The notes: generated from the sequence alone by a model not told the origin. A DNA stretch of 64,000 bases from an uncultured delta proteobacterium (GCA_963760795.1 CAVXEP010000012.1:288001-352000), one strand, 5' to 3'; shown: positions 16,621 through 62,639, numbered from the stretch's first letter. Program-made: numbers and translations.

Positions 16621-16636
16621 TTGGACCTTAGTCCAA
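16621..16636. promoter_or_regulatory. Palindromic operator TTGGAC-CTTA-GTCCAA upstream of the USP gene
   Basis: Perfect 6-4-6 inverted repeat; the motif recurs in at least five other leaders. Confidence 0.75.
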
Positions 16637-16928
16637 CCTGGTACCGGCAAGCAATCCGAGCTCGTGTGTTGGTAGGATCGACACAAGCAACGAGAGCTCC
16701 AAACCGGCATCGGTGAAGCCTTCAGTCAGCACAATGCCTATTTATTACCGAGATTCTGAATCAGCTTATTGCGAGCACCAAGGGCAGGCAAATCGCCGTC
16801 GAGACGGGCGAAGAAAATGATTCCAAAGACTGTGCACAATCGGCAGTAATGGGTCGACGCCAGAGCGCTTAGCGCTAATCCGCTAAGAAACAATGAGCTA
16901 GTGAACTGTAACGCTTGATGCGCGTAAA

Positions 16929-16996
16929 CCGTTCATGGTTCGACGTCTCACCACGAAAGGCACTCCTTTGCCGTTCGCCTGAGCTACGTCGAAGGG
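16929..16996. repeat. REP-like doublet
   Basis: CCGTTCATGGTTCGACGTCTCACCACGAA...CCGTTCGCCTGAGCTACGTCGAAGGG: two related hairpin units in opposite orientation. Confidence 0.55.
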
Positions 16997-17378
16997 CTCC
17001 GAAGATTTGAACGCTAAGTTGATGTTACAGTCCACTGGTCATGGAGATCGCCGCGCGACGATCCACATAAGATACGCCCCGCAACGCGGCTCGTGCGTGG
17101 ATCGTTGGGCTTCGAATCTTAAAGTACGGTGGAGTGCAAATCACCGACCGCCGCTGTGCGCAGTGTTGCAAGACGTGAAGGGCGTCAATAGGTATGCGTC
17201 GCCAAGGGTCAGCGTTCTTCGCGCCACCCTCGACTTCACGAGCACCAGCCCGATCCGACCGTATTAGTCCGCTTATAGCATTGAAATCGTGCAGGGATGC
17301 ATGCGGAAGGGACACTTTATGCGCTCATTATGAGCTCAATGAGCTCGCTCACAACTCCACCGCACTATCCCGCTTGCA

Positions 17379-18035
17379 TCAATATTTGGATAGAGTGGCC
17401 AGTAAGTTCCGCGTGCCCGCAGGCGGCTGTACTCTGCCGCTAAGAATCTCTCCCGCTGTAACCGGCTTGCCGTAATAGCCGGCGTTGAAGTCATCTTTCG
17501 TACCCATGCTGGTGCCCTCGAGGGAAACGCCGGCAAATAGTCCCTGGCTCTGGCTGTAACTGTACATCGCTGCCTGCAAAGCTACGCCGCCCTCGGCCGT
17601 GCGTCCTAGAGGACCCGCCGCTATGCTGAGGTTCCCACCAAGCGTGACGTTGGCCTGTTTGGCAAATGCGTCAACAGCAGCCGGAGTGTTGAGGATAATA
17701 ACGAATTCGGTGATCTCGACCCCAGCTTGAAAACCGACGCCAAGTCCCCCCGTACCGATCGAGGAGGGGGCGCTCCAACCTTTTTCCGTCCGCGCAACGA
17801 CAACTCCAGTACCGCCCCTGGCACTACCAATAAACCCGGCCTTTGTGACGGTAAGAATCGCCACACCTCTGGCTGCGCGTAGGACGGCGGGCGGAATTCC
17901 TTTCTCCGGGATCGCCTCAAACCGTTGAATGATGGCCGCTGCTTGATCAACATCTGCCTGCATCGCATCGCGCGGAGAAACCGTAGCGCAGGCGCTGAAC
18001 AATGCTGCGGCGATCACACAAATAATTGCCTTCAT
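17379..18035 (-). CDS. SYLF/Ysc84 lipid-binding domain lipoprotein
   Basis: Lipobox FSAC; KAGFIGSARGGTG, GFQAG and SQGLFAGVSLEG motifs. Confidence 0.88.
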   Translation of the reverse strand: MKAIICVIAAALFSACATVSPRDAMQADVDQAAAIIQRFEAIPEKGIPPAVLRAARGVAILTVTKAGFIGSARGGTGVVVARTEKGWSAPSSIGTGGLGVGFQAGVEITEFVIILNTPAAVDAFAKQANVTLGGNLSIAAGPLGRTAEGGVALQAAMYSYSQSQGLFAGVSLEGTSMGTKDDFNAGYYGKPVTAGEILSGRVQPPAGTRNLLATLSKY

Positions 18036-18216
18036 GACAAACTCCTTTTATCTGACATTGCATCGATTCGTTGGATTCTGTGGCTGAAACTGCGCTTTCT
18101 GCCTACTCGGCGCGGCAGTTGGAAATTTACTCGGACTATTAGTCAGCTCATACCATTGCAATCGTGAGAAGTCTATTGAAATCATGGGAGAGTTTTTGGA
18201 CAGCTTCACATCTCTT

Positions 18217-18342
18217 TTAGCATCCCGGAAATTTTCTCTGCCCCGGACCGGTCGAATATTGAAGAGGCAAAAGATAATAGCAGAACAGCCCTAGCAACGG
18301 ACCACCGAATAGGCCGATGGGTTTTATCATCGCGACAGTCAT
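18217..18342 (-). pseudogene. N-terminal remnant of an SLC13/DASS transporter (41 aa)
   Basis: MTVAMIKPIGLFGGPLLGLFCYYLLPLQY resembles the first helix of SLC13 transporters; premature stop follows. Confidence 0.5.
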
Positions 18343-18486
18343 TCAGCGCCCACAGGCAACGCAACGAAGTTGGCGACTAGCCCCGGCATCATGAAACAAG
18401 TGGGGTTCACCACGTACCCATTGTAGTAGGCATCCGGGAACCTCGCGGTCTGCTAGGAAGTCATGCTCCATCCGGAATGGGTTCGA
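18339..18486 (-). pseudogene. Deletion scar: aspA 5' end fused to the 3' end of a Dcu C4-dicarboxylate transporter
   Basis: SNPFRMEHDFLADREVP/DAYY (AspA N-terminal pattern RxExDxLxxREVPADAYY) runs into YVVNPTCFMMPGLVA (Dcu C-terminal NHSFMxPGL-like). Confidence 0.65.
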
Positions 18487-25125: not shown

Positions 25126-25251
25126 AATTACACGCTGATTACTTTCAACGAGGTCGTCACTGGCGAGAAGCCCGACTGGGTATTCGGGCGCCAGCTGTGC
25201 ATGCACTGCGAACACCCAGCTTGCGCGTCGGCTTGTCGATCTGCGCCGTGA
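25126..25251 (+). pseudogene. Fragment of a 4Fe-4S dicluster protein (HybA/FdnH/NrfC-like)
   Basis: Manual translation NYTLITFNEVVTGEKPDWVFGRQLCMHCEHPACASAC then stop; CMHCxxPxCxxxC motif. Confidence 0.7.
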
Positions 25252-25300: not shown

Positions 25301-25316
25301 TTGAATCTTGGTCCAA
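25301..25316. promoter_or_regulatory. Operator variant TTGAAT-CTTG-GTCCAA upstream of frdC
   Basis: Two mismatches to the consensus in the left arm; ~195 bp before the frdC start. Confidence 0.6.
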
Positions 25317-25385: not shown

Positions 25386-26809
<1,424 letters not shown>

Positions 26810-26851
26810 AGATCCTCCTCAAACGATTCTGCCCGTGATTCTTTTCATCAC

Positions 26852-27008
26852 TAACGGTTTACTGAAAAACCCGGATTGCAGGCTGCTCAAAAAGATCTCA
26901 GAGGCGAGGCGCGCGAAAAATCGACGAGCGGAGGCGTACATCGGCGGTACGTTGACACGAGGCGATTGAGCGCAACGAAGCATATGAGTCTTTTTCAGCG
27001 GCCTGCTA
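26852..27008. mobile_element. MITE-like element, copy 1
   Basis: TA-flanked, imperfect terminal inverted repeats (CTGAAAAA...TTTTTCAG); near-identical copy at 59182-59335. Confidence 0.8.
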
Positions 27009-27461
27009 AAGATGTCCCACCGAGTCGTGGCAGCGCAGGCAAGCGAGTTGCCCGCCGGCCGGCGCCGGATGTGCCGGCTCGATGGCGCCGACAATCTCCC
27101 CGTGGCAGTTGCGACAGGCTTGCTCGGCGATCTCCCGGCTGTGCGGTTTGATTTGAATATTGTCTTCGTAGCCGCCGGTGGTGAAAAAGAACGAATGCCA
27201 GAAGCCGTTGGACGCCTTCGTCGCATACTTGCCGATGAAGTTCGCCGGCGTGTGGCAGCTGTTGCAGGTGGCAACGGCGCGGTGCGATGATTTGAGCCAG
27301 CCGTCGTACTGTTCGCTCATGACGTGGCAGTTGGCGCAGGCCGCCGGGTCATCGGTCAAATAGGACCAGCCCCGGGCATACGCGAAGGTGTAAGCGCCGA
27401 TACCGACAGCGATGCCGATAATCACCCCGAGCAGGATTCCTTGGATGGTGCGAGGTTTCAT
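27006..27461 (-). CDS. nrfH: Cytochrome c nitrite reductase small subunit (tetraheme quinol dehydrogenase)
   Basis: N-terminal TM helix; CANCHVM, CNSCH, CRNCH, CLRCHDSVGH; upstream of nrfA. Confidence 0.94.
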   Translation of the reverse strand: MKPRTIQGILLGVIIGIAVGIGAYTFAYARGWSYLTDDPAACANCHVMSEQYDGWLKSSHRAVATCNSCHTPANFIGKYATKASNGFWHSFFFTTGGYEDNIQIKPHSREIAEQACRNCHGEIVGAIEPAHPAPAGGQLACLRCHDSVGHL

Positions 27462-27522
27462 CTTGTTGCCGGCCTCGGCCTGTGGAGTATTCGCCGCTAG
27501 GGATATCACTCGCGTTACGCCG

Positions 27523-27549
27523 TTGATATCAGGGATTCCCTGATTTCAA
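27523..27549. promoter_or_regulatory. 27-bp inverted repeat upstream of nrfH
   Basis: TTGATATCAGGGA-T-TCCCTGATTTCAA, 12 of 13 arm positions paired. Confidence 0.5.
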
Positions 27550-27755
27550 TTGCTAAATCCTGCGACGGCAAGCGCCGCGGCGAAGAACATCACCGGAGCG
27601 GGGAGGCGTCCAACGTTGCTCCACCGCGACCGCGATGGGCACTTGCCTGCGGGTTCGGGTTTCATGATCGCAATTCTGTCAGCAGTTGACCTTTCTTAAA
27701 GAAATCGACTGCCTGAACAATCTCCGCTCCTTGCAAATGTCAGTTATCGCCGGTG

Positions 27756-28541
27756 CTAGGTATCTTCAGATTGTCCCGCATACCACGTGACTGCCCGGCT
27801 CCGCCAATCAAAACGGATCGCCAGGAGGCGCAAGAGAAACGTTAGTCCAATTGCCAAGAAAGCCGCCCTTTCCACTTCCATGTGTGCCGCGGTCGCGAGA
27901 ACAACAAAACAGATACAACCGACAAGCGCGGTCAAGGCATAGAACTGGCCAGGCTTGAAAAGGAGAGGCACTTCGCGCGTCAGCACATCGCGCAGCAAGC
28001 CGCCGCCAACTGCGTTTATGGTCCCCACCAAAATAGCCGCGAGAACCGATAGGCCTGCATTCAAAGATTTCTGCGCCCCGACAACGGCGTAGATACCTAG
28101 ACCGAGAGCATCCACCAAAGACAACACGGTTGCGTACGTCCAAGTCAGCCGCCGTTCGAGACCGCTCAGTTGAAACGCCACTCGCGAGTTTCGCTGGGCG
28201 TCTGTCTCGTAGGGGACTTCGGCTCGCACAGCCGGCGCCGGAACGCCGCTCAGAATGCGCCGGACCGGCGGCACAAAGCGGCCGATGACAATCGTTCCTA
28301 AAACCGCCGCCATGATCACTGGCATATAGTAAAGCTCAGTCAGGACCGTCGGTGGACCCGCCTGAATGAAGATACCGTCACGGATTAGCCCGCCGCCCAC
28401 GGCCGTTGTAAATGCCAGGGCAAAGACACCGATGATATCGTAGCCACTGCGCATACCCGCCAGGGCACCGGTAATGGCGAACAAGGATGTCGCCACCAAG
28501 TCGAAGGCCAGCGGAAGTTGGAACTCGGCTGGCAGCATCAC
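27756..28541 (-). CDS. TRIC/UPF0126 (YadS-like) membrane protein
   Basis: FAITGA, TAVGGGLIRD, DALGLG and NAVGGGLLRDVL twin repeats. Confidence 0.9.
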   Translation of the reverse strand: MMLPAEFQLPLAFDLVATSLFAITGALAGMRSGYDIIGVFALAFTTAVGGGLIRDGIFIQAGPPTVLTELYYMPVIMAAVLGTIVIGRFVPPVRRILSGVPAPAVRAEVPYETDAQRNSRVAFQLSGLERRLTWTYATVLSLVDALGLGIYAVVGAQKSLNAGLSVLAAILVGTINAVGGGLLRDVLTREVPLLFKPGQFYALTALVGCICFVVLATAAHMEVERAAFLAIGLTFLLRLLAIRFDWRSRAVTWYAGQSEDT

Positions 28542-28565
28542 ATCTCCATGACCGGGCGGCTGCGT

Positions 28566-28760
28566 TCAGGACATGAGCCAGACAATAATGGTGCCCCAGG
28601 TGGTGAGCAGGATGTGGCCGAATGCCACCGAACCGGAATAACCGAGGACGGCTACGGGGCTACCGGACTTTTCTTGCACAGCGGCGAGCGCCGCCGTCAT
28701 CGTTTGCGCCCCCGCCAAACCGCCAGCAGCAGAGGATCGAGCTTCAGTACATAGCGGCCC
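28566..28760 (-). pseudogene. C-terminal remnant of an AspT-family antiporter
   Basis: GRYVLKLDPLLL/GGLAGAQTMTAALAAVQEKSGSPVAVLGYSGSVAFGHILLTTWGTIIVWLMS*, homologous to the ends of 37829-39535 and 41340-43031. Confidence 0.8.
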
Positions 28761-28818
28761 GTACTAGATTCTGGTGAGTTTCGAACGCCCGCCTCCATTG
28801 GCCGGACCGCGGTTATTT

Positions 28819-29256
28819 TTACTTGCGCGGCTTCGCCTTCTGCAGCTCGGCCCGGTAGGAGATACCGTCCTTCCCCTTGCCCTCGGCTTTCAGCATGGAT
28901 TGCTCCTTGGTCTTGTCGGTAAAAAGCTGGATCGTTAGGTTGCCCTTTTCTCCTTGAGCAACCGCTTTGCCGTCTTTGACGGTCAAATTGCCCTTGCCGC
29001 TGAACACGCCGACGGTCCGATAACTGACAAATTCGTAATCTCCGTTATCTTGGATGCTGACGTTCACCCAATCATCATTTGTCGCTTTCGGCGTTCGAAT
29101 CATGAGTCCTTCCCATTTTCCGGCGATACTCTTAATATCGGCAATCTGCGTGGGCGACCACTGGGTCTTTTCCGCCGAAAACGCAACACAAACGAGCGCT
29201 GCTTGGACTGCGACGACAAACCCGCTGACTCGGACAAAACCCATAATTCGTCTCAT
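28819..29256 (-). CDS. Hypothetical exported beta-rich protein
   Basis: GGGGAG RBS; signal-peptide-like N-terminus; IAGKWEG motif. Confidence 0.65.
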   Translation of the reverse strand: MRRIMGFVRVSGFVVAVQAALVCVAFSAEKTQWSPTQIADIKSIAGKWEGLMIRTPKATNDDWVNVSIQDNGDYEFVSYRTVGVFSGKGNLTVKDGKAVAQGEKGNLTIQLFTDKTKEQSMLKAEGKGKDGISYRAELQKAKPRK

Positions 29257-29288
29257 AAAATCTCCCCTATGACTTGAATCTAATATTC

Positions 29289-29380: not shown

Positions 29381-29409
29381 AAATGCCCGTTGATTGACTT
29401 GAACTTCAA

Positions 29410-30810: not shown

Positions 30811-30811
30811 C

Positions 30812-50942: not shown

Positions 50943-51049
50943 TCGCTCCCTCCGGCCGGTCGATCTAGTTTTTGATCGAACCCGCTACCGGGTTCTTAAT
51001 CCGATATCAGGCCGTGCGTGCCGTTTTACTGTTAAGATCTTTTACTGGC

Positions 51050-51245
51050 TGGTGCCGATATCGACAAACGAAGCTAAGTAGGAGCTAACCCCATCTTGAT
51101 TCCTTAGCACCACACCGCCCACGCCCCCCGCCAGTGCAATCCCTGCTTCAGCCGCCACGTAGGTTCCCGCTCACTTCGCGCTGTCCGTCAAATTGTATAC
51201 GTCCCCAGTAGCGCTCGCTTTGCTGATGCCGAAATCTACCACGTC
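51050..51245 (-). pseudogene. Remnant of a small beta-rich protein (DUF1134-like)
   Basis: VVDFGISKASATGDVYNLTD/AGTYVAAEAGIALAGGVGGVVLRNQDGV across a frameshift. Confidence 0.55.
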
Positions 51246-51366
51246 AAACCGTCGATGGAGAACGCGCCTCGCCAAGCGCTTGCCAACCGCCCCACTCTCG
51301 TGCCGCGATAGTCGGTCGCTCTCTTTGGGCTGAGCTAGTTCTAGCGAATAGTTAATAAGCTGCATA

Positions 51367-51382
51367 TTGGACTTTGGTCCAA
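51367..51382. promoter_or_regulatory. Palindromic operator TTGGAC-TTTG-GTCCAA
   Basis: Symmetry extends to ATATTGGAC-TTTG-GTCCAATAT (51364-51385). Confidence 0.78.
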
Positions 51383-51634
51383 TATAGAAAAGCTCACTTG
51401 GATAATGGGGCCTCGCCTTGCTCTCTCAACAAAACAGCAAGCGCTACAACGATTAGGATAGTCTCGTGACGCAGGTTGCTGAAAGAAACTTCATCTCACA
51501 GGAGCTAACAGAGGCAACAGAGTTTTTCATCGAAACCAATTCTATTCTCAAATCGCGCCTCGGAAATTCCAACAGCAGTGTTTTAACCCAGCGTCTCATT
51601 TTTTCGTCACTTAAGCTTTGCGAAAACTTTGGTG

Positions 51635-54178
51635 TCATGATTTATCCGATGATTTGGCGACGGGTGCGGCGAGATCCATGCTCGCATCGGGCGCCTGATC
51701 GCGCACCAGCCGCACCTCACGTTGGGGAAAGGGAAAGGATAATCCAGCGGCGATCACCGCGTCGTACACGGCCGTCGCCAAATCGCTTCTGATGGGTGTT
51801 GGCGGACGGGATTGATCCGTCCACACCCGCAACTCGAAATTGATCGAGCTGTCACCGTAACTCAAGAAAACTGCCTCCGGCGCCGGATGCTTGAGGACCT
51901 GCGGATGCGCCGCCGCCACGCCTACGAGTAGATCGACCACCTTCTTGGGGTTGGCGCCGTAGTTCACTCCTACCGGAAGATCGACGCGCCGCAGCTTGTC
52001 ACTCAGCGTCCAGTTGGTCACTTTCTCGGTGACCATCTGCGAATTGGGCACGATAATGTCGGCCCCCTGCAGCGTGTGCAAGACGCTCGCGCGTATACCG
52101 ATGCGGCGAACTACGCCCTGAAGAGTGCCGACCTCGACTGTATCGCCGACATGGATCGGCCGTTCGAATAGCAAAATAAGACCGGAGACAAAATTATTGA
52201 CGACACTCTGCAGCCCAAAACCGATGCCGACGCTGAAGGCGCCGGCCAGAAGGCTTACCTTGGAAAAATCCACCCCGAGCACACCTAGTGCCGCGACGAA
52301 TCCGAGGGCGAGAATAATGTAATTGAGCAAGCTGGAAGTGGCGTAGGACATACCCGGGGCGAGATCGATTCTCGGGTAGACATCTTCCTGTAAAACGAAG
52401 CGCAGAAAGCGTGACAACAAGTACGCCAGCCAAACGGTCAGAACAAATTCTAGGACATTGCCGATGGAGATGGAAAGCGAGCGGCGCTCTAGCTTGGTTG
52501 CAAGCAGGGCCTCCGCCAAAGACCACGCGGGATCGAGAAGACCGAGATAGCTCAGGTAGCGGATCAACCAGCCCCCGACCATCATCCAAATGAGCAGCCG
52601 ATAAATCCGTCTTTCCAGAAGTTCTCGATGGTGCGCAACCATCTGTAGCGAAGACAACGGCCACACACGCAACGCCAGGGCGAGCAAGCCGGCGCAAACT
52701 TGAAGAGACGCAAAGAATATCAATGCCAGGACGCCCCCAACAAAAATACCCGGGGTCAATAGCCGCGCCAGGCGCGTATAGCCTGCCACCGCCGCCAATA
52801 GCCCGACAAGGAGAACGATGTTGAGAAGAAATCGAGCTAACTTCAGGTCGATCAGACCGGAAGAGTCCGCTCTCGCAGCAATGATCTCCCGATAGTGGCG
52901 GCGCATCGAGTACAGCACGATGATCGCGGCGAGGGTTTCGGCGACCAGAATCGCCTGACCGATCACTTGTATGCCCGCAAAGGTCTGGCGTAGGGCATCG
53001 ACGGCAAACAGAAAACAGCACATGTAGAGCGCGAACGCGACCGCGGCACTGATCATTGGCCGCGCCAGGCGGAGCATCGGCGCCAGCGCTACGACTGTCA
53101 GCAATTGTCGCACGACGGTGGGCAACTGAAAAAATAAAGGCGCGGTCACAAAAACCAGAGTCGTGGCCAACGCCGCTGCGTAGGGGCGCTCGAAGACCAA
53201 GATCGCCGACGATGCACCCACGCCGGACTTTTCCCACACCGCGATCGTGCGCCGCGCCGCCGAGAACACCAAGGCTAAGAAAAGGAAGATAGCGGGATGG
53301 AGAGCCCCGCCCTGACGCGGATCGCGGATGTATTCGGCAACATCTGTCCAATATGCGCCGGCAATCTTGCCGACATGCTCGGGCAGCGCGGCGACCGCAT
53401 CGGACCATAAATCGATCGTCCAGATCGGCGGCGCGTCGCGCGAGAGGATACCGGCGACGGCTTTCTGCTGAAAATCGGCAATTCGCTGCAGCGCTGTCCC
53501 ACATCTCGTCGTTTCCGCCGCCACCCGGCTTTGCAGATCTAAGATGTTGGCACGCTGCGCCTGCAAAGGCACCTGGGCATCGACAATAACTGTGAGCGTT
53601 GCATCCATCTGCTGCAGAATCGGACCGGGGGCCTTTGCCGCTTGCGCCGACGCGCGACTACTACTCCAAAGTTTTTCCAATTCAGCGAGTCGATTCAACG
53701 AATCCTGTAGCTTGGTGGCTTCCAGCGTCAGCGCGTTCAGCCATCCGGTCACCTGCAATTGCGTGGCCTGCCATAGCTGTTGCTCGTTCTGCAATGTCTC
53801 GAGGGTAGGCTCCGCTTCCAGGGCCTTTGTCGTGGCGGCGAATTGCGCGTCCAACTTCTCGCTCAATTCAGGAAGCGTCTTGGCGATGTTTTCGATTTGC
53901 GCGCTGGGCTTTGCGCCCGCTGTCAGATTACCGATTAGGTTGGATACTGCGGTGGCCCATGTGGCAATATCGGCGAGCGGGATCGTAGCCGGCGCTGCCG
54001 CTGCCGCGGGCGTCGGTGGGGCCGGTGGTTGTGCTGTCTCCGTTTTCTTTTGTTCCGCCGCCTCGACTAAAATTGCCGGCAGCGAACAGGCAACGAGCCC
54101 GGCGATAAGTGAAGCGCAGAGCAACGATCGCACCGATCCGCGAGATCTTTTGACGAATGTGAGATCTTCCTGGTTCAT
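51635..54178 (-). CDS. MscS-family mechanosensitive channel with large periplasmic/TM N-terminus (MscK-like)
   Basis: GIGFGLQSVVNNFVSGLILLFERPIHVGD, IIVPNS, FPFPQREV. Confidence 0.92.
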   Translation of the reverse strand: MNQEDLTFVKRSRGSVRSLLCASLIAGLVACSLPAILVEAAEQKKTETAQPPAPPTPAAAAAPATIPLADIATWATAVSNLIGNLTAGAKPSAQIENIAKTLPELSEKLDAQFAATTKALEAEPTLETLQNEQQLWQATQLQVTGWLNALTLEATKLQDSLNRLAELEKLWSSSRASAQAAKAPGPILQQMDATLTVIVDAQVPLQAQRANILDLQSRVAAETTRCGTALQRIADFQQKAVAGILSRDAPPIWTIDLWSDAVAALPEHVGKIAGAYWTDVAEYIRDPRQGGALHPAIFLFLALVFSAARRTIAVWEKSGVGASSAILVFERPYAAALATTLVFVTAPLFFQLPTVVRQLLTVVALAPMLRLARPMISAAVAFALYMCCFLFAVDALRQTFAGIQVIGQAILVAETLAAIIVLYSMRRHYREIIAARADSSGLIDLKLARFLLNIVLLVGLLAAVAGYTRLARLLTPGIFVGGVLALIFFASLQVCAGLLALALRVWPLSSLQMVAHHRELLERRIYRLLIWMMVGGWLIRYLSYLGLLDPAWSLAEALLATKLERRSLSISIGNVLEFVLTVWLAYLLSRFLRFVLQEDVYPRIDLAPGMSYATSSLLNYIILALGFVAALGVLGVDFSKVSLLAGAFSVGIGFGLQSVVNNFVSGLILLFERPIHVGDTVEVGTLQGVVRRIGIRASVLHTLQGADIIVPNSQMVTEKVTNWTLSDKLRRVDLPVGVNYGANPKKVVDLLVGVAAAHPQVLKHPAPEAVFLSYGDSSINFELRVWTDQSRPPTPIRSDLATAVYDAVIAAGLSFPFPQREVRLVRDQAPDASMDLAAPVAKSSDKS

Positions 54179-55875
54179 GGCGAGGTGGATTGCGGCGGCG
54201 GCTTCTCGAACGCGGCCACGGCATCCGGGAGCTGACTGAAGAGTTTACTAACGTCGACCTTTTGACTTGTCACGGTGGCCAGCGTTTCACGCAAGGGCAG
54301 GTGCGCTTTCGCCACAACGACCTCGATACCGCGGGCGCGCAGCTGCGCCACATACTCGCGCACCTGCTCAGCGGCGGTGATGTCGATGCTCGGAATAGCG
54401 CGGGCGTCGAGTATCACCTGCCGTACCGGATGCTGCTCCTGCGCGATAAAATGCTCGAGGCGCTCGATGAAGAAGCGCACGTTCGCAAAGATTAGCGGGC
54501 CATAGAAACGATACACCACCAGCCCGGGAATCGTATCCGCCGCATCGTCATCACCGACATCGTGCATCGTGGCCGAGCCCTGCTGGCGCCCGAGCAGCGC
54601 GTCCTGCGGACGGACGATCTCCGCCAGCACGCCGAGCAGCGAAAGTACGACGCCGAAGAGGATACCCGGGAGCACGCCCAGCGCGAGAACGCCAAAGGTG
54701 GTCGACGCCGCGACGATCATGCTGAAACCGTGCAATCGCCACAGATGCTGATACACTCGCGGATCGACCAGCGTCACGCCGGTAAAAACGAGGATGGCCG
54801 CGATGGCCACGGATGGAATCGTCGCGATCCACGGCGCGAGCAGGAAGACGAACGCCGCCACCAGCGCTGCGCCGAGGAAGCTGACCATCTGCGTGCGCCC
54901 GCCGGTGCCGTCGTTGAGCAGCGAGCGGGTCTGACTGGAGCCGACTGCAAAGCTGCACACCAAGCCCGCGGCGGCATTGGCCGCGCCAAACGCGATCAAT
55001 TCGCGGTCGGGATTGATCTGGTAGCCATGCTTGGTTGCAACGGAACGTCCGAGCACCACGCCTTCGGAAAATACCAGCAGGGCAATGCCGATGGCCGCGG
55101 TGAACAGCGGGGTCGCATCCGTGATGTGCAAGTGGGGCCGCACCGCGTCGGGCAGGTGCAGGTCCACCGTGCCGATCACCGGCACGCCGAGCGCGGAAAA
55201 ATCCACGAGCCGTCCTGCGATCATTGCCAGCACGAAAACAGCGACCGCCCCAGGTACTTTCGGAACTTTCCATCGGCACAGCGCCAGCACTGCGATGCAC
55301 GCGAGACCGACGAGCAGCGTTCGCGCGTGCGTTTCGTCGAGCCGCGTTGCCCATTCCCACAGGCGCAACAGCGTGTTGTCCTCCTCCAGTCGAATGCCGG
55401 AGAATTTTCCGATTTGGCTGCCGACGATGACGACCGCAGCGCCGTTCATGAAACCGAGCATCGCCGGACTGGAGAGGAAATCCGCTGCGATGCCGAGCCG
55501 CAATCGCGCCATGAGGAACAGCACGCCGGCTGTGAGAAATGCTAGCACCGCCGCTAGCGTAGCGGCTTTGCCCGCGTCCGCCGCTGCGAGCGGGCCGATG
55601 GCCGCGCCGACGAGCAGCGCAATCGCCGCGTCTGGACCCACGATGAGGTGACGCGAACTCGTGAACAGCGCGAACACCACCATTCCCGCCACCGCCGCAT
55701 AGAAGCCCGCGGCCGGCGCACATTTCGCGAGTTCCGCATACGCGAAGGCCGACGGAATCGTCACCAGGGCGACGACGAGTGCCGCGAGCGCATCGTGCCG
55801 AAAATGCGCACGCTCGTAAGCCCAGAGCAGTGCCGCGCCCGGCAGCCACCTACCAAGTCGTTCGCCTGCCGTCAT
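54175..55875 (-). CDS. SulP family anion transporter with STAS domain
   Basis: IPSAFAYA, VGPDAA, DRELIAFGAAN, YRFYGPLIFAN; stop overlaps the mscS start. Confidence 0.92.
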   Translation of the reverse strand: MTAGERLGRWLPGAALLWAYERAHFRHDALAALVVALVTIPSAFAYAELAKCAPAAGFYAAVAGMVVFALFTSSRHLIVGPDAAIALLVGAAIGPLAAADAGKAATLAAVLAFLTAGVLFLMARLRLGIAADFLSSPAMLGFMNGAAVVIVGSQIGKFSGIRLEEDNTLLRLWEWATRLDETHARTLLVGLACIAVLALCRWKVPKVPGAVAVFVLAMIAGRLVDFSALGVPVIGTVDLHLPDAVRPHLHITDATPLFTAAIGIALLVFSEGVVLGRSVATKHGYQINPDRELIAFGAANAAAGLVCSFAVGSSQTRSLLNDGTGGRTQMVSFLGAALVAAFVFLLAPWIATIPSVAIAAILVFTGVTLVDPRVYQHLWRLHGFSMIVAASTTFGVLALGVLPGILFGVVLSLLGVLAEIVRPQDALLGRQQGSATMHDVGDDDAADTIPGLVVYRFYGPLIFANVRFFIERLEHFIAQEQHPVRQVILDARAIPSIDITAAEQVREYVAQLRARGIEVVVAKAHLPLRETLATVTSQKVDVSKLFSQLPDAVAAFEKPPPQSTSP

Positions 55876-56189
55876 GACGTGATGTTTTCATTAAACTGGG
55901 CTCAATTCTAGTAAATCGTACACATGCTTATTGCAGGGCTGTCTTTGCCTGAGCGGTATAACTATTAGTGAGCCGCCGTTAGCTGCCACAAAAGCGGATC
56001 GGCTTAGTCCGGCGACGGCTTACACAATAAAGTCCAAATCGATTGCAATATTCATTAGCTATCTCACCTTAACAAGGTAAAGTTTCCCGCCAACCCCTGC
56101 CGAGCCCGGCGGGTTATCTCGCTGTCGATTCGGCGAATCCTGCCGGCGCTTTCGGGCTGAAGTTGATGCCGATCGCGGCCTAAGCTTTG

Positions 56190-56570
56190 CGCGTTCTTTG
56201 AGCTTTAGATTGATCCAGATATCGACAAATTTTGCGAAGTCGGGGTCCGGTGCGAGGGGATAAGCGAGCGGCACTTTGATGGGGCGAGGCATAGGCACGA
56301 CCACCGCAAGTTCGGGGTGTAGCAATGTCCACGCAGAGCCCTGCTCAGCCGTCAGCACCAGCGCGTCGAGCTTTTTGCCTTCGGGTCCGAACATAGCCGC
56401 TATGGAATTTAGCGGCACGACTTCAGCAGCAGGAAGTTCGGTTTTAACTTTGTCGAGGTAGTACGGCACATTGGGCACGCCTATACGCAGCCGGCCTAGC
56501 TGGCGCACGCTTCCCCAATTGGCAAACTGATCGCGCCGGTAATCGGCAACGACGAAAGCGAGAGTCTCAA
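56190..56570 (-). pseudogene. Fragment of an amino-acid substrate-binding domain (type seen C-terminal to DAACS fusions)
   Basis: ETLAFVVADYRRDQF...AEQGSAWTLLHP...VPLAYPL...FVDIWINLK, lacking the N-terminus and a normal C-terminus. Confidence 0.6.
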
Positions 56571-56659
56571 AGCATGGCGAGCACAGGCCAAAAAATCGAA
56601 ATTAAAATATTCCGCGGGAGCTGCCTGATAGGCCGCTACCAAAAGCATGCTAAAGCGAA

Positions 56660-57271
56660 CTACTTGTCACCCACCCGTCGACCTTCGGTCACTTTGCGAG
56701 TTTCGGCGACCTTGTGCCAGCTGTCCCAGTCCACCAGCAGCATGGCATCGGCTCCAGAAACCAGGTTAAGCTGTGTACCCTTGAAGATAAAAACTTTTCC
56801 GGGAACCTCCGTGACTCTCTTAAAGCTCTTGCCGCCTTCGACCTCGCTGGCAATATAGTACCGACTGTCGTTTACGTTCGGGTCCGCGACAAAAGGAACT
56901 TCAGCACCGCCCTCTCTAAAGTTCACTTTAATCCAATTCGGGCCTGCTGCCGTGACCACACCAGGAGTCAACATCGGTACTACGAACGACTGCGTTGCCG
57001 TGGGGTCTTTAACTTGGGCGACAACCTGCGTCGAGACATAGAATTGCACCTTTTTGAGATCGTCTTCGCTCAGGCTGAGAGCCTGCCGATGGGTGTAATT
57101 TTGAAAAGGAAGTGTCGTCGGGCCCGACGCGCAGCCGACAAGAAAAAAGAAGAGAGACACTGCCAGGCAGCCTTGAAGGTTTTGCCAGTGGTTCGAGCAT
57201 GTCCGAGAATCCACGAACACAGATGCCAGTTGCGGGGTCGATCGCATGCCGCGTTTTTTTTGGACTTCCAT
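56660..57271 (-). CDS. Hypothetical lipoprotein
   Basis: Lipobox LVGC preceded by a hydrophobic run; the start may be mis-set. Confidence 0.6.
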   Translation of the reverse strand: MEVQKKRGMRSTPQLASVFVDSRTCSNHWQNLQGCLAVSLFFFLVGCASGPTTLPFQNYTHRQALSLSEDDLKKVQFYVSTQVVAQVKDPTATQSFVVPMLTPGVVTAAGPNWIKVNFREGGAEVPFVADPNVNDSRYYIASEVEGGKSFKRVTEVPGKVFIFKGTQLNLVSGADAMLLVDWDSWHKVAETRKVTEGRRVGDK

Positions 57272-57352
57272 TGATACAACTCCTTTGTGCCGACATTGAA
57301 ACGCTTCCTCGGTCTGCGAGGCCAGTGGACATTGCCTGCCATCACCAACATT

Positions 57353-58219
57353 TTATTCGGGTAACCCGTTGAGCAGATACATGGACAGAATCGCCGCGCT
57401 GGGTTTGCCGAAGGCGCCAAACCACCGGTCGTAAATTGGCACAATGTTGCCCGAGCGGTAGATCTCAGCCAATGTCCGGTTTACCGCCAGCCTGAACGCC
57501 GCGTCGTTGCGCCGCACCATGAATCCGTAAGGCTCATACGAAAACAGGATGCCCGGCAGCGCAAAACGCGACGGATCTTTCGAGGTAACCGCTAGTCCGA
57601 CTAAGATACCGCGATCCGAGGCGAATGCATCCGCTGAACCCTTTTCGATCGCCGCGACCCCTTCCACGTGATTTTTCACGGGAACGATTTTGACCGCAAC
57701 GAATTCCTCCTTGAGATATTTATCCAACGCGGTCTGCGTCGTGGTCCCTGGAATGACGGCGATACGTTTATCGGCGAGATCGGCCACCGCGCCAAGCTTC
57801 AAGCTGGACGAAGTCAACAGGCCGCCGCCGTCGACGAACGTCATTAAACTGAAATCGACTTTTTCCTGGCGCGAAAGACTGGCGGTGCTCGTGCCGCACT
57901 CGATATCCACCTTGCCCGATGCCACCATTTCAAGTCGATTCGCGGTCGTGACCGGAACCCAATTGAGTTTCAGACTGACCCCGAGTTGCTTTTGGATGGC
58001 ACTGGCGATCTGCGTGCAGAGATCGATGGAATAACCCACCGGCCGCCGATCCGGTCCTGGAAAGGAAAATGGCGGCGCCGACTCAAGGTAACCTAAGGTA
58101 AATGTTTCGGCCGTTTTGATCTTCTTGAGCGTCCCGTCCAATTCCTGACCGGGCGCCGCACCGACCATCATCATGGCCGACACAATTAGAGTCGCGCCGA
58201 TTATCTTGATATTCGTCAT
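57353..58219 (-). CDS. Polar amino-acid substrate-binding protein (GltI-like)
   Basis: GTLKKIK, PPFSF, GYSIDLC, VDIECG...R, EPYGFMVRRND. Confidence 0.9.
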   Translation of the reverse strand: MTNIKIIGATLIVSAMMMVGAAPGQELDGTLKKIKTAETFTLGYLESAPPFSFPGPDRRPVGYSIDLCTQIASAIQKQLGVSLKLNWVPVTTANRLEMVASGKVDIECGTSTASLSRQEKVDFSLMTFVDGGGLLTSSSLKLGAVADLADKRIAVIPGTTTQTALDKYLKEEFVAVKIVPVKNHVEGVAAIEKGSADAFASDRGILVGLAVTSKDPSRFALPGILFSYEPYGFMVRRNDAAFRLAVNRTLAEIYRSGNIVPIYDRWFGAFGKPSAAILSMYLLNGLPE

Positions 58220-58394
58220 CTGCTTCTCCTTAAACTAAAAGTGAAATTGAGACATTGAAACGTCCCGCCATAACTTTAAACGCAAAATCAAATATGAAAC
58301 AACTCAAGATCTCGAATCCGGCCCGGAAACTGGTTCCCTGGCCCTGGTAAACAGAATTGAAATCAATATAGGCCGAAGTCGGAGGCCGCGTATA

Positions 58395-58410
58395 TTAGAC
58401 TTTGGTCCAA
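58395..58410. promoter_or_regulatory. Operator TTAGAC-TTTG-GTCCAA upstream of the SBP gene
   Basis: One mismatch from a perfect palindrome; ~175 bp before the start. Confidence 0.72.
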
Positions 58411-58535
58411 TGTGGAAAAATAAATTAAATCTCTGCTGCTGTCCGGGATCAAATCAAAACATCAGCTCCCTTAGTTCTTTGCTCTCTGCGCCGGGCATTT
58501 TCACTCGACACTCGACACCCGACACTCCTGCGCGC

Positions 58536-59126
58536 CTACTGCCCCGATCGATCAAGCGCGCTTATTGCGGCAGCGATGTCCTGGCTCAAGCGCGCGAGCG
58601 CGCGGCTGTGGGCGGCGGCGAGCGCATCGTAGCTTTTCACTGGCACGGTTTCGCGCGCGGTGGTGCGTCCTGGTTCGGTCTTGCCGTCCTTGGTCCGGCG
58701 CACGGTCCAGACCGCGTCGACAATTGCTGCCTCGCCCGGCGCCGACTGAAAGCTTTGCACCTCGATGGCGACGCGATAATCGGTGTCCGCGCTCAACGAC
58801 TGCGCCGCCAAGGTCACGCGCGGCGTGCCCAGCATCAGCACGAGATTATCGGCGATCACGCGGGCGATATTATTTTGCAGCGGCGCCGCCCAGCGGTTGA
58901 ACTCTTCCAGTCGCACTTGATTCGGGCCGATGTCGACAACGATCTGCGGCCGATCGACCACGGCGGGCACGGACACCGGACCCACCGCTACCGATAGTTT
59001 GGCTGGCGTCGCAGCAGGCCCGTTCGTAGCGCTTAGGGTATAAAAGCGCGACGGCGGCGTGGACCCGCAGCCGGTCGCGAGAGCGGCGAGGGCGCAGACA
59101 GAAGCAAGAGCGGTGCGGTGGCGCAT
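58536..59126 (-). CDS. pqiC: PqiC family lipoprotein
   Basis: ATGC lipobox, RFYTL, VDRPQIV, RWAAPL; follows pqiB. Confidence 0.88.
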   Translation of the reverse strand: MRHRTALASVCALAALATGCGSTPPSRFYTLSATNGPAATPAKLSVAVGPVSVPAVVDRPQIVVDIGPNQVRLEEFNRWAAPLQNNIARVIADNLVLMLGTPRVTLAAQSLSADTDYRVAIEVQSFQSAPGEAAIVDAVWTVRRTKDGKTEPGRTTARETVPVKSYDALAAAHSRALARLSQDIAAAISALDRSGQ

Positions 59127-59181
59127 TGGATTCTTACCTTTCAAATGTTTCAAGTGAACGACTTCACCAGGGATCCTTATC

Positions 59182-59335
59182 TAGCCGGTTGCTGAAAAAC
59201 CTAGATTGCAGACTGCTCAAAAAGATCTCAGAGGCGAGGCGCGCGAAATTTCGACGTGCGCAGGCGTACGCCTGTACGTTGGAGCGAGGCGATTGAGCGC
59301 AACGAAGCATATGAGTCTTTTTCAGCAGCCTGTTA
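59182..59335. mobile_element. MITE-like element, copy 2
   Basis: TAGCCGGTTGCTGAAAAA...TTTTTCAGCAGCCTGTTA; interior matches 26852-27008. Confidence 0.8.
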
Positions 59336-61006
59336 GGGCTTCTCCTCGCTCTTGCCCCGCAGCAGCGCTTCGGGATGTTGCTCTAGATAGTCGGTCAATA
59401 TGCGCAACGATCGGGCGGCGCGGGCCATCTCCTGCAGGGCGTCGCGCAAATCCTGCTGAGCCGGCGCATTAGGACCTACGAGTGTGGCATCCGCGTTTTT
59501 GAGTACGCCGTCGGCGCCGGAAAGTGTGCGGCGCAATTCCTCGATGGTAGTTCTCAAACCGGGGGTGACTTCTGCGTCAATACGGTTCACTGCCTTGTCG
59601 GCCGATTTCAGCGTTTGATCGAGAGAGGCGAGCGCTTTGGTGAGATCGGTGCCAATCGCTTCGTAAGGCAAATTGTCGAGCTTGGCGAGAATGCCGGTCA
59701 CCTTTTGCTCGAGATCCGTGATTGCTCCCGGCATCACCGGGAGCTCCACAGGGTCCCGGCTCCAGTCAATTTTCGCTTTGGGCGCGTTCGGAAAGAAATC
59801 GAAGGCGACAAACAGCTGGCCGGTGAGCAGGTTGCCGCTGCGCAGCTGGGCGCGCAGCCCGCGCTGCTCGACCAAGCGCCGCATGATCGCCTGGCGCTCC
59901 AGTGCGTTGCCCTGGAGCATTTTGCCGATGTCCGCTTTATTTGGGCCCAAGCGCGCGACCAGACGCTCGGGATAAGACACCACCTCGACCCGCGCTCGAG
60001 TGTTCATCGTCGCCGGGTCTATGGCGAGGCCGACATCGGTAACCTCGCCCGCCGGCAACCCGAGCAGGGTGACGGGCGCGCCCACGGACAACCCGCGCAG
60101 CGATTCGCTGAAATGGAGCACATAGCGCGTTGAGATGGACTCCGGCTGCTTCATTGCGGTGGTTTGGTCGGCGTAGAGCGTGAAGACCGTGTTCGCGGCG
60201 GCGGGCTCCGTGTTGGCAGCAAATGATGGCGTATTGAACGCGAGACCGCCGGCGAGCACCGCGATGAGAGATTGCGTGCGCACTTCCACTCCGCCCGCGC
60301 CGATTGACGCATCGATGCCGCTCGCGTTCCAGAAGCGGGTGCCGGGATTGACGTATTTGTCGTAGGGCGCGTTGACGAAAATCTTGATCTCGATTTCCTT
60401 GCCGTCGGCTGCGAGGCCATAGGCGACGACCTGCCCCGCCAGCAGCCGGTGGTAATAAATCGGCGAGCCGATTCCTAGCGAGCCGAGGCTATTGGCCTTG
60501 AGAACGAACTGCCGGCCCGCTTGACCGCCGGTGATGATCGGCGGCACATCGAGCCCGGTGTATTGGCGTTGCGCCTTGTCGGACTTGCCGAGCTCGAAAC
60601 CGATGTAGTTGCCCGAGAGCAGGGTGCCTAGGCCTGATACTCCGCTCAGCGTGACCCGCGGCTCGACGACCCAAAACTTGGCATCCTCGACCATCAGCCC
60701 CGCCGCGCTTTTATCGATCTTCGCCGTCACTTCTACCTTCGTGTGGTCGGCGGAGAGCTTCACCGCCGTCACCTGGCCGATGTTTACGTCCTTATACTTG
60801 ATGAAAGTCTTGCCGGCCTCTAACCCCTCTGCGGTTTTGAAGACGATGTTGATGGTCGGGCCCTCGCTCATGATGCGCTGGATGGCAATACCAGCAGCCA
60901 CCACTGCGGCGAGGATCGGGATGATCCAGACGATCGAAATCCGCGTGCCTCGCTTGCGCACGACGGTGGCCTGCGGCAAGTCGTCGCGATCGATGCTCTC
61001 AGCCAT
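59333..61006 (-). CDS. pqiB: PqiB (three MCE/MlaD domains)
   Basis: VWIIPI, AEGLEAGKT, FWVVEPR, TRFWNASG, GLRAQLRSGNLLTG, LTDYLEQHPEALLRG. Confidence 0.93.
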   Translation of the reverse strand: MAESIDRDDLPQATVVRKRGTRISIVWIIPILAAVVAAGIAIQRIMSEGPTINIVFKTAEGLEAGKTFIKYKDVNIGQVTAVKLSADHTKVEVTAKIDKSAAGLMVEDAKFWVVEPRVTLSGVSGLGTLLSGNYIGFELGKSDKAQRQYTGLDVPPIITGGQAGRQFVLKANSLGSLGIGSPIYYHRLLAGQVVAYGLAADGKEIEIKIFVNAPYDKYVNPGTRFWNASGIDASIGAGGVEVRTQSLIAVLAGGLAFNTPSFAANTEPAAANTVFTLYADQTTAMKQPESISTRYVLHFSESLRGLSVGAPVTLLGLPAGEVTDVGLAIDPATMNTRARVEVVSYPERLVARLGPNKADIGKMLQGNALERQAIMRRLVEQRGLRAQLRSGNLLTGQLFVAFDFFPNAPKAKIDWSRDPVELPVMPGAITDLEQKVTGILAKLDNLPYEAIGTDLTKALASLDQTLKSADKAVNRIDAEVTPGLRTTIEELRRTLSGADGVLKNADATLVGPNAPAQQDLRDALQEMARAARSLRILTDYLEQHPEALLRGKSEEKP

Positions 61007-61640
61007 GCAGCCCCTCCCTGTTTCCAAGCGAATCCCAAATCAAGCGCGGGTCGAAGGACTCCGCCGCAATCATCGTCAACACCACCACCGCCGCAAAAAA
61101 CAGCACCCCGGCACCGGGCTCGACAAACATCAGCGGCTGGAGCTGTACAAGAGCAACGGTAAAAGTGACGACGAACACATCGAGCATCGACCAGCGGCCG
61201 ATGAACTCGACCATTCGGTACAGCCGGGTGCGCTCACGGCTGCCGAGCTGCGAGCCGCGCTGCACCGTAATCAACAGATAGGCGAGCGCCACCAGCTTGC
61301 CGAACGGGATTATTATGCTGGCGATCAACACGATCAGCGCCAGCGGCCACGATCCCGAAGTGTAAAGAAACACCACACCTCCCATGATATTTTCGGCATC
61401 GACGGAACCGAGCTTTGTCGAGCTCATTACCGGCAGGACGTTGGCTGGAATAAAACAGATTGCCGCGGCGATGAGCAGCGCCCAGGTGTATTGAATGGAA
61501 TGGTGGTGGCGCCACTCGAGGTTGTCGCCACAGCGCGGACAGTAGCCCGGCTCGGCCGGATCGGCCGGCCGCAACAGCAAGCCGCAGGTTTCGCAGGAAA
61601 CCAGTCCCGCCTGGGCTGCAGTGAGTGGGGTGGTGCTCAT
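60999..61640 (-). CDS. pqiA: PqiA family protein (C-terminal-half type)
   Basis: CETC...CPRC, IPANVLP, GRWSMLDVFVV, FDPRLIWD. Confidence 0.92.
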   Translation of the reverse strand: MSTTPLTAAQAGLVSCETCGLLLRPADPAEPGYCPRCGDNLEWRHHHSIQYTWALLIAAAICFIPANVLPVMSSTKLGSVDAENIMGGVVFLYTSGSWPLALIVLIASIIIPFGKLVALAYLLITVQRGSQLGSRERTRLYRMVEFIGRWSMLDVFVVTFTVALVQLQPLMFVEPGAGVLFFAAVVVLTMIAAESFDPRLIWDSLGNREGLHG

Positions 61641-61781
61641 AATTTTCCGTGCGTAATCGTTTTCGCAGCTTGCGCAACGCCTCGAGGGCGCGATCAGTCG
61701 CGGCCCGACAAATCAATGTCATTTCCGCCTCGTGCGTTTTGCCGTGAATTCTCCGGTTCCGATTCTCCTTCCGACAACGAT

Positions 61782-61814
61782 TTGAACGGCTTGAACGGTT
61801 TGAACGACTGGAAC
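61782..61814. repeat. Nonamer tandem repeat (TTGAACGNN)
   Basis: TTGAACGGC TTGAACGGT TTGAACGAC TGGAAC between the two pqiA genes. Confidence 0.8.
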
Positions 61815-61840
61815 TCTATTTTGGTTGCGCCGCCGCCGCG

Positions 61841-62485
61841 CTATGCTCCCCCAACGCCGGTCGCGTCGGTGCGCGCCGGCATTTCGCCTTCGGCCCATTC
61901 AACCCGTTGCCAGACCTCGCTCGGATGGAAGGTGACCATGATCGCGGCAAACAGAAAGATCAGCGCCCCGACCGCATAGATGCCGATGCCGGGCTCCACC
62001 GTCGCCACCTCGGCAATTTTGATCAGCGCGACCAGGATACCGAGCATCATCACCTCGCTCATCGACCAAGGCTGCATGGACTCCGCCCAGCGCAGCAACT
62101 CTCCGACCCAGTGCGGCGCCGGCGGCCGCCGCACAGCGATTAATACCGTCAGCATGAACAGGATGTAGCTTGCCGGAGCGATCACCGCGCAGAAAGCAAC
62201 GACCATGGCGGTCACATCCTGCCCTTGGAGCCACATCTCGTAGGCGCCGCCGATGATCGTCGTGCTCGCCTGGCGCCCGACGGCCGAGAGCCCCATCAGC
62301 GGTGACGTATTGGCGACGATTAATACGATGGCAGCCGTGAGCGTAAGCGCCAGCGTGCGGTCGATCGAATCGGTTGGCGCCGAGGCGAGAGTGTGACCAC
62401 AGCGCGGGCATCGCGCCTTACCGCCGGGCGGCAGTGGCGGCAACCGCTGTAGCAGATCGCAATCGGGGCAGGCGACGGTTTCCAT
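61841..62485 (-). CDS. pqiA: PqiA family protein (N-terminal-half type)
   Basis: CPDCDLL...CPRCG, PWSMSEVMMLGILVALIK. Confidence 0.92.
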   Translation of the reverse strand: METVACPDCDLLQRLPPLPPGGKARCPRCGHTLASAPTDSIDRTLALTLTAAIVLIVANTSPLMGLSAVGRQASTTIIGGAYEMWLQGQDVTAMVVAFCAVIAPASYILFMLTVLIAVRRPPAPHWVGELLRWAESMQPWSMSEVMMLGILVALIKIAEVATVEPGIGIYAVGALIFLFAAIMVTFHPSEVWQRVEWAEGEMPARTDATGVGGA

Positions 62486-62623
62486 AAACGGTTAGCGTGA
62501 GCGTTGAATAAAAGTAAAAGGTTGAAGAAACGTTACCAGGGCTTTCTACCTCAAACCTGAGCGTTAAAATCCCGAGAAGACATGACTCCCCTTCCAATTA
62601 GCAAATAGCCGGAAGCCTGTATG

Positions 62624-62639
62624 TTAGACCTTGGTCCAA
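62624..62639. promoter_or_regulatory. Operator TTAGAC-CTTG-GTCCAA upstream of pqiA
   Basis: One mismatch from a perfect palindrome; ~140 bp before the start. Confidence 0.72.

Follow-up and report, generated by a model that had tools for sequence, protein, structure and literature searches.

Which protein reads a 16-bp palindrome that recurs in front of many different genes, always facing the same way? The question is raised by a 64,000-nucleotide stretch of DNA from an uncultured delta proteobacterium (GCA_963760795.1 CAVXEP010000012.1:288001-352000), which was analysed as a whole and is referred to here as the window, with positions counted from its first letter. The palindrome, TTRGACYTTRGTCCAA, stands there upstream of genes for, among others, a Usp protein, an RND efflux adaptor and PqiA. 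We conclude, with a probability that we would put at roughly 0.8, that it is the operator of a NarL/FixJ-type response regulator with a LuxR-like helix-turn-helix (HTH) domain, which is paired with a multi-PAS, FixL-like kinase and would activate the promoters of the gene island to which the window belongs. The operator of a NarL/FixJ-family regulator is a textbook kind of element. Less ordinary are the gathering of a whole regulon in one co-directional stretch of ~97 kb (152 kb in the related genome G018) and the retention across phyla of a regulator-box-receiver module with DosR/EL222-type recognition.

Distribution of the palindrome

The first-pass annotation of this DNA had listed six near-identical intergenic copies some 140–425 bp upstream of minus-strand genes, and the description holds. 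A pattern search of the window gave nine rows, three of them reverse-strand readings of the same palindromes; the copies at 16621, 35382, 51367, 58395 and 62624 match TTRGACYTTRGTCCAA exactly, and that at 25301 carries two mismatches. By comparison, 100 dinucleotide shuffles of the window gave a mean of 0.09 matches and a maximum of 1. All six copies are intergenic, each upstream of minus-strand genes, and the distance to the next minus-strand start codon is 139–425 bp (the individual values are given in the feature list below). The gene names had also been assigned correctly, in that Pfam identifies the first genes behind the six copies, in order of position, as Usp, Sdh_cyt (frdC), an HlyD-type RND adaptor, AI-2E, SBP_bac_3 and PqiA.

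Across the 6.58-Mb genome there are eight exact copies and one copy with a single mismatch, all of them within 263,643–360,170 of contig C12, on which the window occupies 288001–352000, and none elsewhere, so that the regulon is confined to one ~97-kb stretch rather than scattered. All nine lie on the plus strand with the genes behind them on the minus strand, which carries nearly every gene between about 257 and 364 kb of C12. A weight matrix trained on 48 sites from five relatives, with this genome's own sites left out, finds 10 distinct sites in the same stretch at 20.8–39.4 bits; the best match anywhere else in the genome scores 16.6. No tRNA genes that might mark island borders were found in the 60 kb flanking the window.

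With this relatives-only matrix the copies at 25301, 5526, 46084 and 56032 all score below 12 bits. The last three had been proposed as weaker members of the set, and of these one survives: the copy at 46084 aligns with an exact box at the same position in the related genome G019 and reads as a decayed orthologous operator site. The copy at 5526 was rejected for its 5-bp spacer, and that at 56032 as a half-site in the wrong orientation. The degenerate copy before frdC at 25301 is doubtful and probably not a functional box.

Is the palindrome simply the visible part of something longer? In 176-bp windows around the copies the mean column identity is 51%, the invariant part consists of the box and a few flanking bases, and the flanks cannot be aligned beyond about TA..TATAC. 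Because the flanks share no more than this, the palindrome is not part of a longer mobile repeat, and an origin as a repetitive extragenic palindrome (REP) or miniature inverted-repeat transposable element (MITE), which would call for sequence sharing well beyond the palindrome, was rejected.

A probable directional promoter module

The anatomy of the sites emerges from a logo of 57 sites with at most one mismatch, oriented by gene and stacked, that were taken from this genome and from G018, G003, G019, G013 and G017. Forty-nine of the 57 fall outside crude open reading frame (ORF) calls in these six genomes, in keeping with an upstream placement. In the gene direction the consensus reads TA-TTGGACYAARGTCCAA-TATAC and is followed, after 13 unconserved positions, by a second conserved block, cTTCGnTAgAwt, at positions 35–45; over the whole interval from -89 to +106, values above 0.35 bit are confined to positions -1 to 21 and 35 to 43. 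The two inverted half-sites of the 6+4+6 palindrome fit a dimer of HTH domains. The second block may be a -10 region, perhaps including a G of extended-10-like type. The distance from the palindrome centre to the first base of this -10-like element is 31.5 bp, and, if the block is indeed the -10, the palindrome would be centred at about -43.5, where a -35 element would be expected but is absent: positions 17–22 read TATACn, with no conserved -35-like hexamer.

The first-pass annotation had noted that the asymmetric 4-bp spacer keeps one orientation. The constancy is real; its cause appears to be broader, namely that the repeated unit is a directional promoter composed of operator and -10-like element, and not the spacer alone. 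Two boxes of G018, separated by 28 bp, point away from each other, toward a PLD-type gene 77 bp off and a glycosidase gene 164 bp off, and since this pair serves divergent genes, box orientation follows the gene and not the chromosome. The G018 pair (C14 651,364–651,407) occupies a divergent intergenic region and reads as back-to-back promoters; a second pair of opposite orientation, 165 bp apart, is seen at C14 554,603–554,783.

A response regulator and kinase at the edge of the island

The regulator had been expected to lie outside the window, and a good candidate does. One of the nine GerE-domain genes in the genome (C12 360,384–361,079) lies 8 kb past the end of the window, where the site-bearing stretch has its upstream border, and encodes a 232-residue protein with Response_reg (4e-28) and GerE (8e-20) domains. 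Its nearest solved structures are StyR (1yio, 7e-58), FixJ (5xso, 3e-44), NarL (6e-16) and DevR (3c3w, 1.2e-14), and its recognition helix, VEKTVKVHRARV (vEKTVKVHR), has an EKTVK start, like those of DosR and EL222. Directly upstream on the same strand lies a 986-residue ORF with several PAS domains, HisKA and HATPase_c. An exact box is found 214 bp downstream of the regulator gene, followed by a gene for a 131-residue, receiver-only protein; as this protein has only two Cys residues, it is unlikely to be of the Fe-S FixT type.

The catalytic core of the kinase matches that of FixL at about 1e-53. Its PAS domain at residues 487–611 is nearest to the heme-PAS domains of DosP (1e-13 to 4e-14) and FixL (~1e-11 to 1e-12), with a His that aligns with the His of the DosP 'ahpey' stretch. 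Given these two resemblances, oxygen or redox sensing is a reasonable guess, although one to which we would give slightly less than an even chance.

Regulator and box travel together among relatives. Of 31 genomes of the genus, 23 have the exact pattern (counts that take in the present genome and the unpublished G004), and the reversed control pattern occurs nowhere in the genomes searched. With presence of the regulator defined as a match at E<=1e-30, 24 same-genus genomes divide into 12 with regulator and motif, none with the regulator only, five with the motif only and seven with neither; among 16 genomes from other genera of the order, none has the regulator or the exact motif. Ten of the 12 same-genus genomes with a regulator match (G019, G023, G009, G002, G013, G008, G017, G018, G003 and G004) have an exact box 100–511 bp downstream of the best match. 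Clustering recurs as well: 19 of the 20 copies in G018 fall within C14 510–663 kb, and all six in G003 within C9 5–40 kb.

The same association is seen at greater distance, in 80 listed loci from other lineages that were retrieved by regulator similarity only and that include no same-genus loci. In 19 of the 80, the core GACYAARGTC lies in gene orientation at the 3' end of the regulator gene (23 hits in 74.5 kb, none reversed), as compared with 14 forward and 5 reverse occurrences in 560 kb over the rest of the 80 loci. The residue at the column of DosR K179, extracted by tblastn, tracks the box closely: 18 of the 32 loci with Lys at this position are boxed, versus one of the 48 with any other residue. 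By label, the 19 boxed loci belong to Binatia, Desulfobacterota-type, Verrucomicrobiota, Acidobacteria and Planctomycetaceae, with a single Mesorhizobium locus besides; among the matches listed, the nearest regulator locus outside the genus comes from a Binatia metagenome-assembled genome. At 10 cross-phylum loci the genes behind the box encode receiver-only proteins (five), phosphoketolase, polyphosphate kinase 2 (PPK2), Usp and a metallo-beta-lactamase-fold protein, with one lacking a Pfam match.

Three of the loci from other phyla (L015, L065 and L026) have two to four box-like palindromes farther from the regulator gene, among them three in L015 and, in L065, four TTGGAC-N4-GTCCAA variants. 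These extra palindromes hint at small local regulons outside the genus.

Comparison with known systems

Four known systems invite comparison. DosR reads GGGACT/TGTCCC through K179, K182 and N183, and at hspX, where the -35 is suboptimal, its box is 'centered around -43.5' (PMC13486717), much as the box here would be centred near -43.5 over a poor -35. The shared GGAC-N4-GTCC core to which the first-pass annotation had drawn attention is indeed present in the DosR consensus oligonucleotide, which contains GGACTAAAGTCC and within which the whole box core GGAC-(T/C)AA(A/G)-GTCC can be found; mutagenic primers printed in the same paper encode AEKTVKNY (PMC5999986). Both recognition helices thus start with EKTVK, and the candidate targets here include Usp and genes of anaerobic respiration.

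The likeness does not extend to orthology, DevR being matched at 1.2e-14 as opposed to 7e-58 for StyR and 3e-44 for FixJ. DosS and DosT are GAF-heme sensor kinases, whereas the kinase here has PAS families only and no GAF match at E<=0.001 in Pfam. The DosR regulon is scattered, whereas the present one is contiguous on one strand, and the TTGGAC arms seen here differ from the GGGAC of DosR with its longer flanks. The earlier proposal of a NarL/LuxR-type regulator with a DosR-like box is upheld by adjacency, co-occurrence and the helix-lysine correlation, and amended in its affinities, which are to StyR and FixJ rather than DevR: the regulator appears DosR-like in DNA specificity and promoter geometry and is not a DosR orthologue.

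EL222, the light-activated LOV-HTH protein of Erythrobacter litoralis, closely resembles the regulator in recognition. Its helix EKTVKmHRglV is almost the same as EKTVKvHRarV here, and the box core RGACYTTRGTCC meets its 12-bp consensus, RGNCYWWRGNCY, exactly; the best EL222 operator contains CCTTTAGTCCA, and the C120 operator also has TTTAGTCCA (PMC10521638). EL222 differs in being a one-component system with a LOV input in place of a phospho-receiver, and the available portion of that paper describes no linked kinase or regulon island.

StyS/StyR (and TodS/TodT) provide the nearest structure and a similar geometry, StyR being a phosphorylation-dependent dimer with an essential activating site 'about -40' from the start (PMC2442086). 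The StyR helix, EvTVK (EVTVKVHR), is without the lysine that tracks the box, however, and StyS/StyR targets a single catabolic operon with an IHF-dependent architecture. FixL/FixJ resembles the present pair in kinase core, in the one PAS domain nearest heme PAS domains and in the overall similarity of FixJ to the regulator, but differs in the FixJ helices, spRTvEVHR and spRTiEVYR, as against vEKTVKVHR here. FixT is a receiver-domain inhibitor induced by FixLJ (PMC7078487; bioRxiv 2024.02.05.579008); the receiver-only gene directly behind the box, here and in five of the 10 cross-phylum loci examined, is reminiscent of it.

That the motif itself is undescribed agrees with our searches: none of the four 16-mers of the box was found in the literature searched, which leaves outside the supplementary files that might hold EL222 or DosR operators, and one 12-mer core appeared there in two papers, one on DosR and the other, unrelated, on mouse. 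The term 'FixJ box' was not found in the same literature, and a search of it for DosR-like systems in other phyla gave only unrelated ecology papers.

Proposed mechanism and its alternatives

How might the module work? We propose that a dimer of the regulator binds TTGGACYAARGTCCAA, centred some 31.5 bp upstream of the -10-like element (at about -43.5), where a -35 element would lie, and most likely recruits RNA polymerase from there in a class-II-type activation. Each strong copy would then be one half of a directional promoter module, and a single signal, possibly low oxygen or redox state acting through a heme-type PAS domain, would switch on at least nine co-directional transcription units over ~97 kb. 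The units so switched would encode Usp, ion channels and exchangers, the RND pump, an NrfHA-like nitrite reductase, the decarboxylase/exchanger set, Pqi proteins, an aquaporin and the receiver-only protein. Observed directly are the sites, their restriction to one region, the second element at its constant distance and the linkage to the regulator gene; binding by this regulator, activation in preference to repression, and the nature of the signal are what we infer from sequence.

Several observations weigh against this proposal. The motif is found without a regulator match in G005, G010, G012, G015 and G022, all of them assemblies of 320–850 contigs, and G010 has no fewer than 13 exact sites; fragmentation aside, these five genomes may really lack the regulator. 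Because related genomes are not independent, the co-occurrence counts overstate the support. A second LuxR-type protein, encoded at C1:163,527, has the helix SEKTVKTH, which also starts with EKTVK. Within the promoter module, the T expected at the last position of the -10 hexamer is weak (17 of 57 sites). A change from C to T at gene-direction position 14 occurs in 5 of the 57 sites, with its mirror change in none, so that only the promoter-proximal half-site varies, and a sense-strand RNA hairpin tolerating G-U would give the same result. Likewise, binding by a dimer to a near-palindrome is not enough in itself to account for a central AA that is always turned toward the gene. As to the signal, the aligned His of the kinase PAS domain is only a putative heme ligand. 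Finally, a 400-residue ABC_sub_bind ORF (C12 360,986–364,832 region) overlaps the first ~316 nt of the kinase ORF in another frame, and because of this overlap the kinase input may instead be a periplasmic ligand, with a solute-binding-type sensor domain split by a frame error.

The regulator might also bind the box and act as a repressor, blocking RNA polymerase at -35 until a signal removes it. The box does cover the place of the -35 element; StyR is also able to repress from other sites (PMC2442086), and EL222 boxes within the promoter core repress (PMC10521638). The missing -35-like hexamer is, however, typical of activator-dependent promoters, and DosR activates from the same centre, as does StyR from its site near -40. 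We regard repression as unlikely.

Very unlikely, in our estimate, is that the box is a real operator of a different protein, either the EKTVK-helix protein encoded on C1 or an unrelated dimeric regulator. Such a binder would account for the second EKTVK helix and for the five genomes with the motif and no match to the C12 regulator, but the box stands directly after a C12-type regulator gene in the 10 same-genus genomes and 19 cross-phylum loci already described, and the match nearest to the C1 gene that resembles the motif scores 13.4 bits and lies 19 kb away from it.

Could the palindrome act instead as RNA, folding in read-through transcripts or 5' leaders into a hairpin (8-bp stem, YAAR tetraloop) that signals processing, stability or attenuation? 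Its inverted repeat is perfect and its loop 4 nt long, and its copies stand between co-directional genes, so that read-through RNA would contain them. The sole recurrent arm variant, the C to T change, keeps a G-U pair on the sense strand. Against this, 6 of the 57 sites have a single arm change that breaks a pair, and the changes in the two copies of this genome with two mismatches each (C12 270,188 and 313,301) are uncompensated. The sequence itself, beyond pairing, is nearly invariant over the 57 sites and across phyla, and it fits protein-binding consensus sequences; the -10-like element at its fixed distance places the box upstream of the predicted start; no U-tract follows the box; and Rfam gives no covariance-model match at gathering score in the 64-kb window. 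An RNA role is thus highly improbable.

That the copies are chromosome-organising sites (parS-, matS- or NBS-like) marking one chromosomal domain is hardly credible: 16-bp palindromes within one 97–152 kb stretch in each well-assembled genome, nearly all on one strand, would suit it, but their orientation tracks local gene direction (divergent pairs included), their spacing to the -10-like element is fixed, single copies stand behind the regulator gene in other phyla, and no partition-protein family appears among the Pfam-scanned genes around the sites, where no search was aimed at ParB.

A widespread module and its possible role

If the operator assignment is right, the kinase, the regulator with its EKT(V/I)K helix, the box and the receiver-only gene could together form an ancient, undescribed module spread over Binatia, Desulfobacterota, Verrucomicrobiota, Acidobacteriota and Planctomycetota, in function perhaps a low-oxygen or dormancy switch analogous to DosR, whose targets elsewhere include Usp, PPK2 and phosphoketolase. 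In this Binatia genus the regulon would have been gathered into one co-directional island of 100–150 kb with 10–20 activator-dependent promoters, gained and lost as a unit. We put this wider scheme forward tentatively, as rather more likely wrong than right.

What the analysis yields is a testable circuit (sensor, regulator, operator, promoter geometry and targets) for an uncultured soil lineage on whose regulation the literature searched holds nothing. It suggests that DosR/EL222-type recognition, with the lysine of the EKTVK helix and RGNCY half-sites, is used by a widespread subfamily of regulators in at least five phyla, and the correlation of helix with box provides a simple rule for predicting the operators of such regulators. 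The confinement of a regulon to one single-strand stretch of ~100–150 kb is unusual and could help in studying the assembly and loss of regulons. For their part, the targets predict that these bacteria cope with anoxic or stressful soil microsites by respiring nitrite and probably fumarate, and by means of decarboxylase/exchanger pairs, ion channels, Usp and envelope functions.

Targets in the window and in relatives

The features of the window are as follows, in window coordinates and all on the minus strand; gene families are from Pfam, and scores in bits from the relatives-only matrix.

16621–16636, minus: operator box, in gene direction TTGGACTAAGGTCCAA; exact, intergenic, 275 bp before the usp start; 28.4 bits
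16592–16602, minus: -10-like element TTCGtTACAAG, 19–29 bp downstream of the box in gene direction
7720–16346, minus: Usp, Na/Ca exchanger, K+ channel (Ion_trans_2), CHAD, SulP/STAS and Na/H exchanger genes, after box 16621; operon limits inferred
25301–25316, minus: degenerate copy with 2 mismatches, doubtful, 196 bp before frdC; <12 bits
17379–25105, minus: frdC (Sdh_cyt), frdA, fumarase C, frdB, DASS dicarboxylate carrier and Ysc84-like genes
35382–35397, minus: operator box, exact, 167 bp before the RND adaptor gene; 30.4 bits
35353–35363, minus: -10-like element TTTGaTAATTA, from the site logo
25459–35215, minus: HlyD adaptor, AcrB pump, OEP, hypothetical, Gly_transporter, NapC/NirT-type cytochrome and cytochrome c552 (NrfA-like) genes, after box 35382
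46084–46099, minus: putative decayed operator ACTTACCAAAGTTTAA, before the SpoIIAA-like and decarboxylase genes; <12 bits
51367–51382, minus: operator box, exact, 425 bp before the AI-2E transporter gene; 39.4 bits, the genome's highest score
51338–51348, minus: -10-like element TTCGCTAGAAC, from flank comparison and the site logo
35551–50942, minus: AI-2E, DUF3300, DUF2950, SpoIIAA-like, Orn/Lys/Arg decarboxylase, unknown, aminotransferase, Asp-Al_Ex, Gly_transporter and OprD porin genes, after box 51367
58395–58410, minus: operator box, exact, 176 bp before the SBP_bac_3 gene; 35.7 bits
51635–58219, minus: SBP_bac_3, two hypothetical, SulP/STAS and MscS-like channel genes, after box 58395
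62624–62639, minus: operator box, exact, 139 bp before pqiA; 32.5 bits
62595–62605, minus: -10-like element TTTGCTAATTG, from the site logo
58536–62485, minus: pqiA, pqiA-like, MlaD-domain (pqiB-like) and ABC_trans_aux lipoprotein genes, after box 62624

Outside the window, box-preceded units comprise an aquaporin, an Lnb_N protein, a second DUF3300/DUF2950 pair and the receiver-only gene. The two DUF3300-DUF2950 pairs of the island lie at 47064–49461 of the window, behind box 51367, and at C12 356,857–359,077, behind the one-mismatch box at C12 359,626.

When the flanks of the relatives' sites were aligned with this genome at the nucleotide level, only 3 of 48 aligned across the site, and site orthology was therefore judged from the downstream proteins. 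Boxes in other genomes precede orthologues of the RND adaptor (G018 and G019), the SBP_bac_3 protein (G003), pqiA, the decarboxylase and the gene at the window end; the pqiA box at 62624 aligns, together with its flank, with G003. The efflux, amino-acid and envelope genes that had been claimed for the regulon are box-preceded, then, and the weak member of that claim is fumarate respiration. In five of the seven relatives that have a frdC orthologue an exact box lies 99–125 bp upstream of it, but the 25301 copy is a separate, degenerate sequence that does not occupy the position of the relatives' frdC box, and that position is gapped here; control of fumarate reductase in this genome is accordingly doubtful. 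The gap, of ~20 bp relative to G018 within window ~25130–25200, coincides exactly with the G018 frdC box and is either a real operator deletion or an assembly error.

Neighbouring features

Between 37829 and 45828 an Orn/Lys/Arg-type decarboxylase, a class I/II aminotransferase-fold protein and an Asp-Al_Ex exchanger are encoded together, an arrangement that recalls exchanger systems that are driven by decarboxylation and build a proton gradient independently of respiration. A 566-residue minus-strand ORF (41323–43023) separates the aminotransferase from the decarboxylase; it has no Pfam match, its third-position GC content is 0.47 as against ~0.7 in its neighbours, and it is overlapped by a second reading frame and by a 420-residue plus-strand ORF.

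Metagenomes of soil, bog and mine drainage, from 12 studies in all, contain parts of window 50000–59000 (best share 0.42), which is not evidence of habitat. At the low-coordinate end of the island, window 1–5500 holds many short ORFs, of which 4006–4539 matches positions 93–221 of a 713-position glycogen phosphorylase model; the region looks like a broken or frame-shifted phosphorylase gene.

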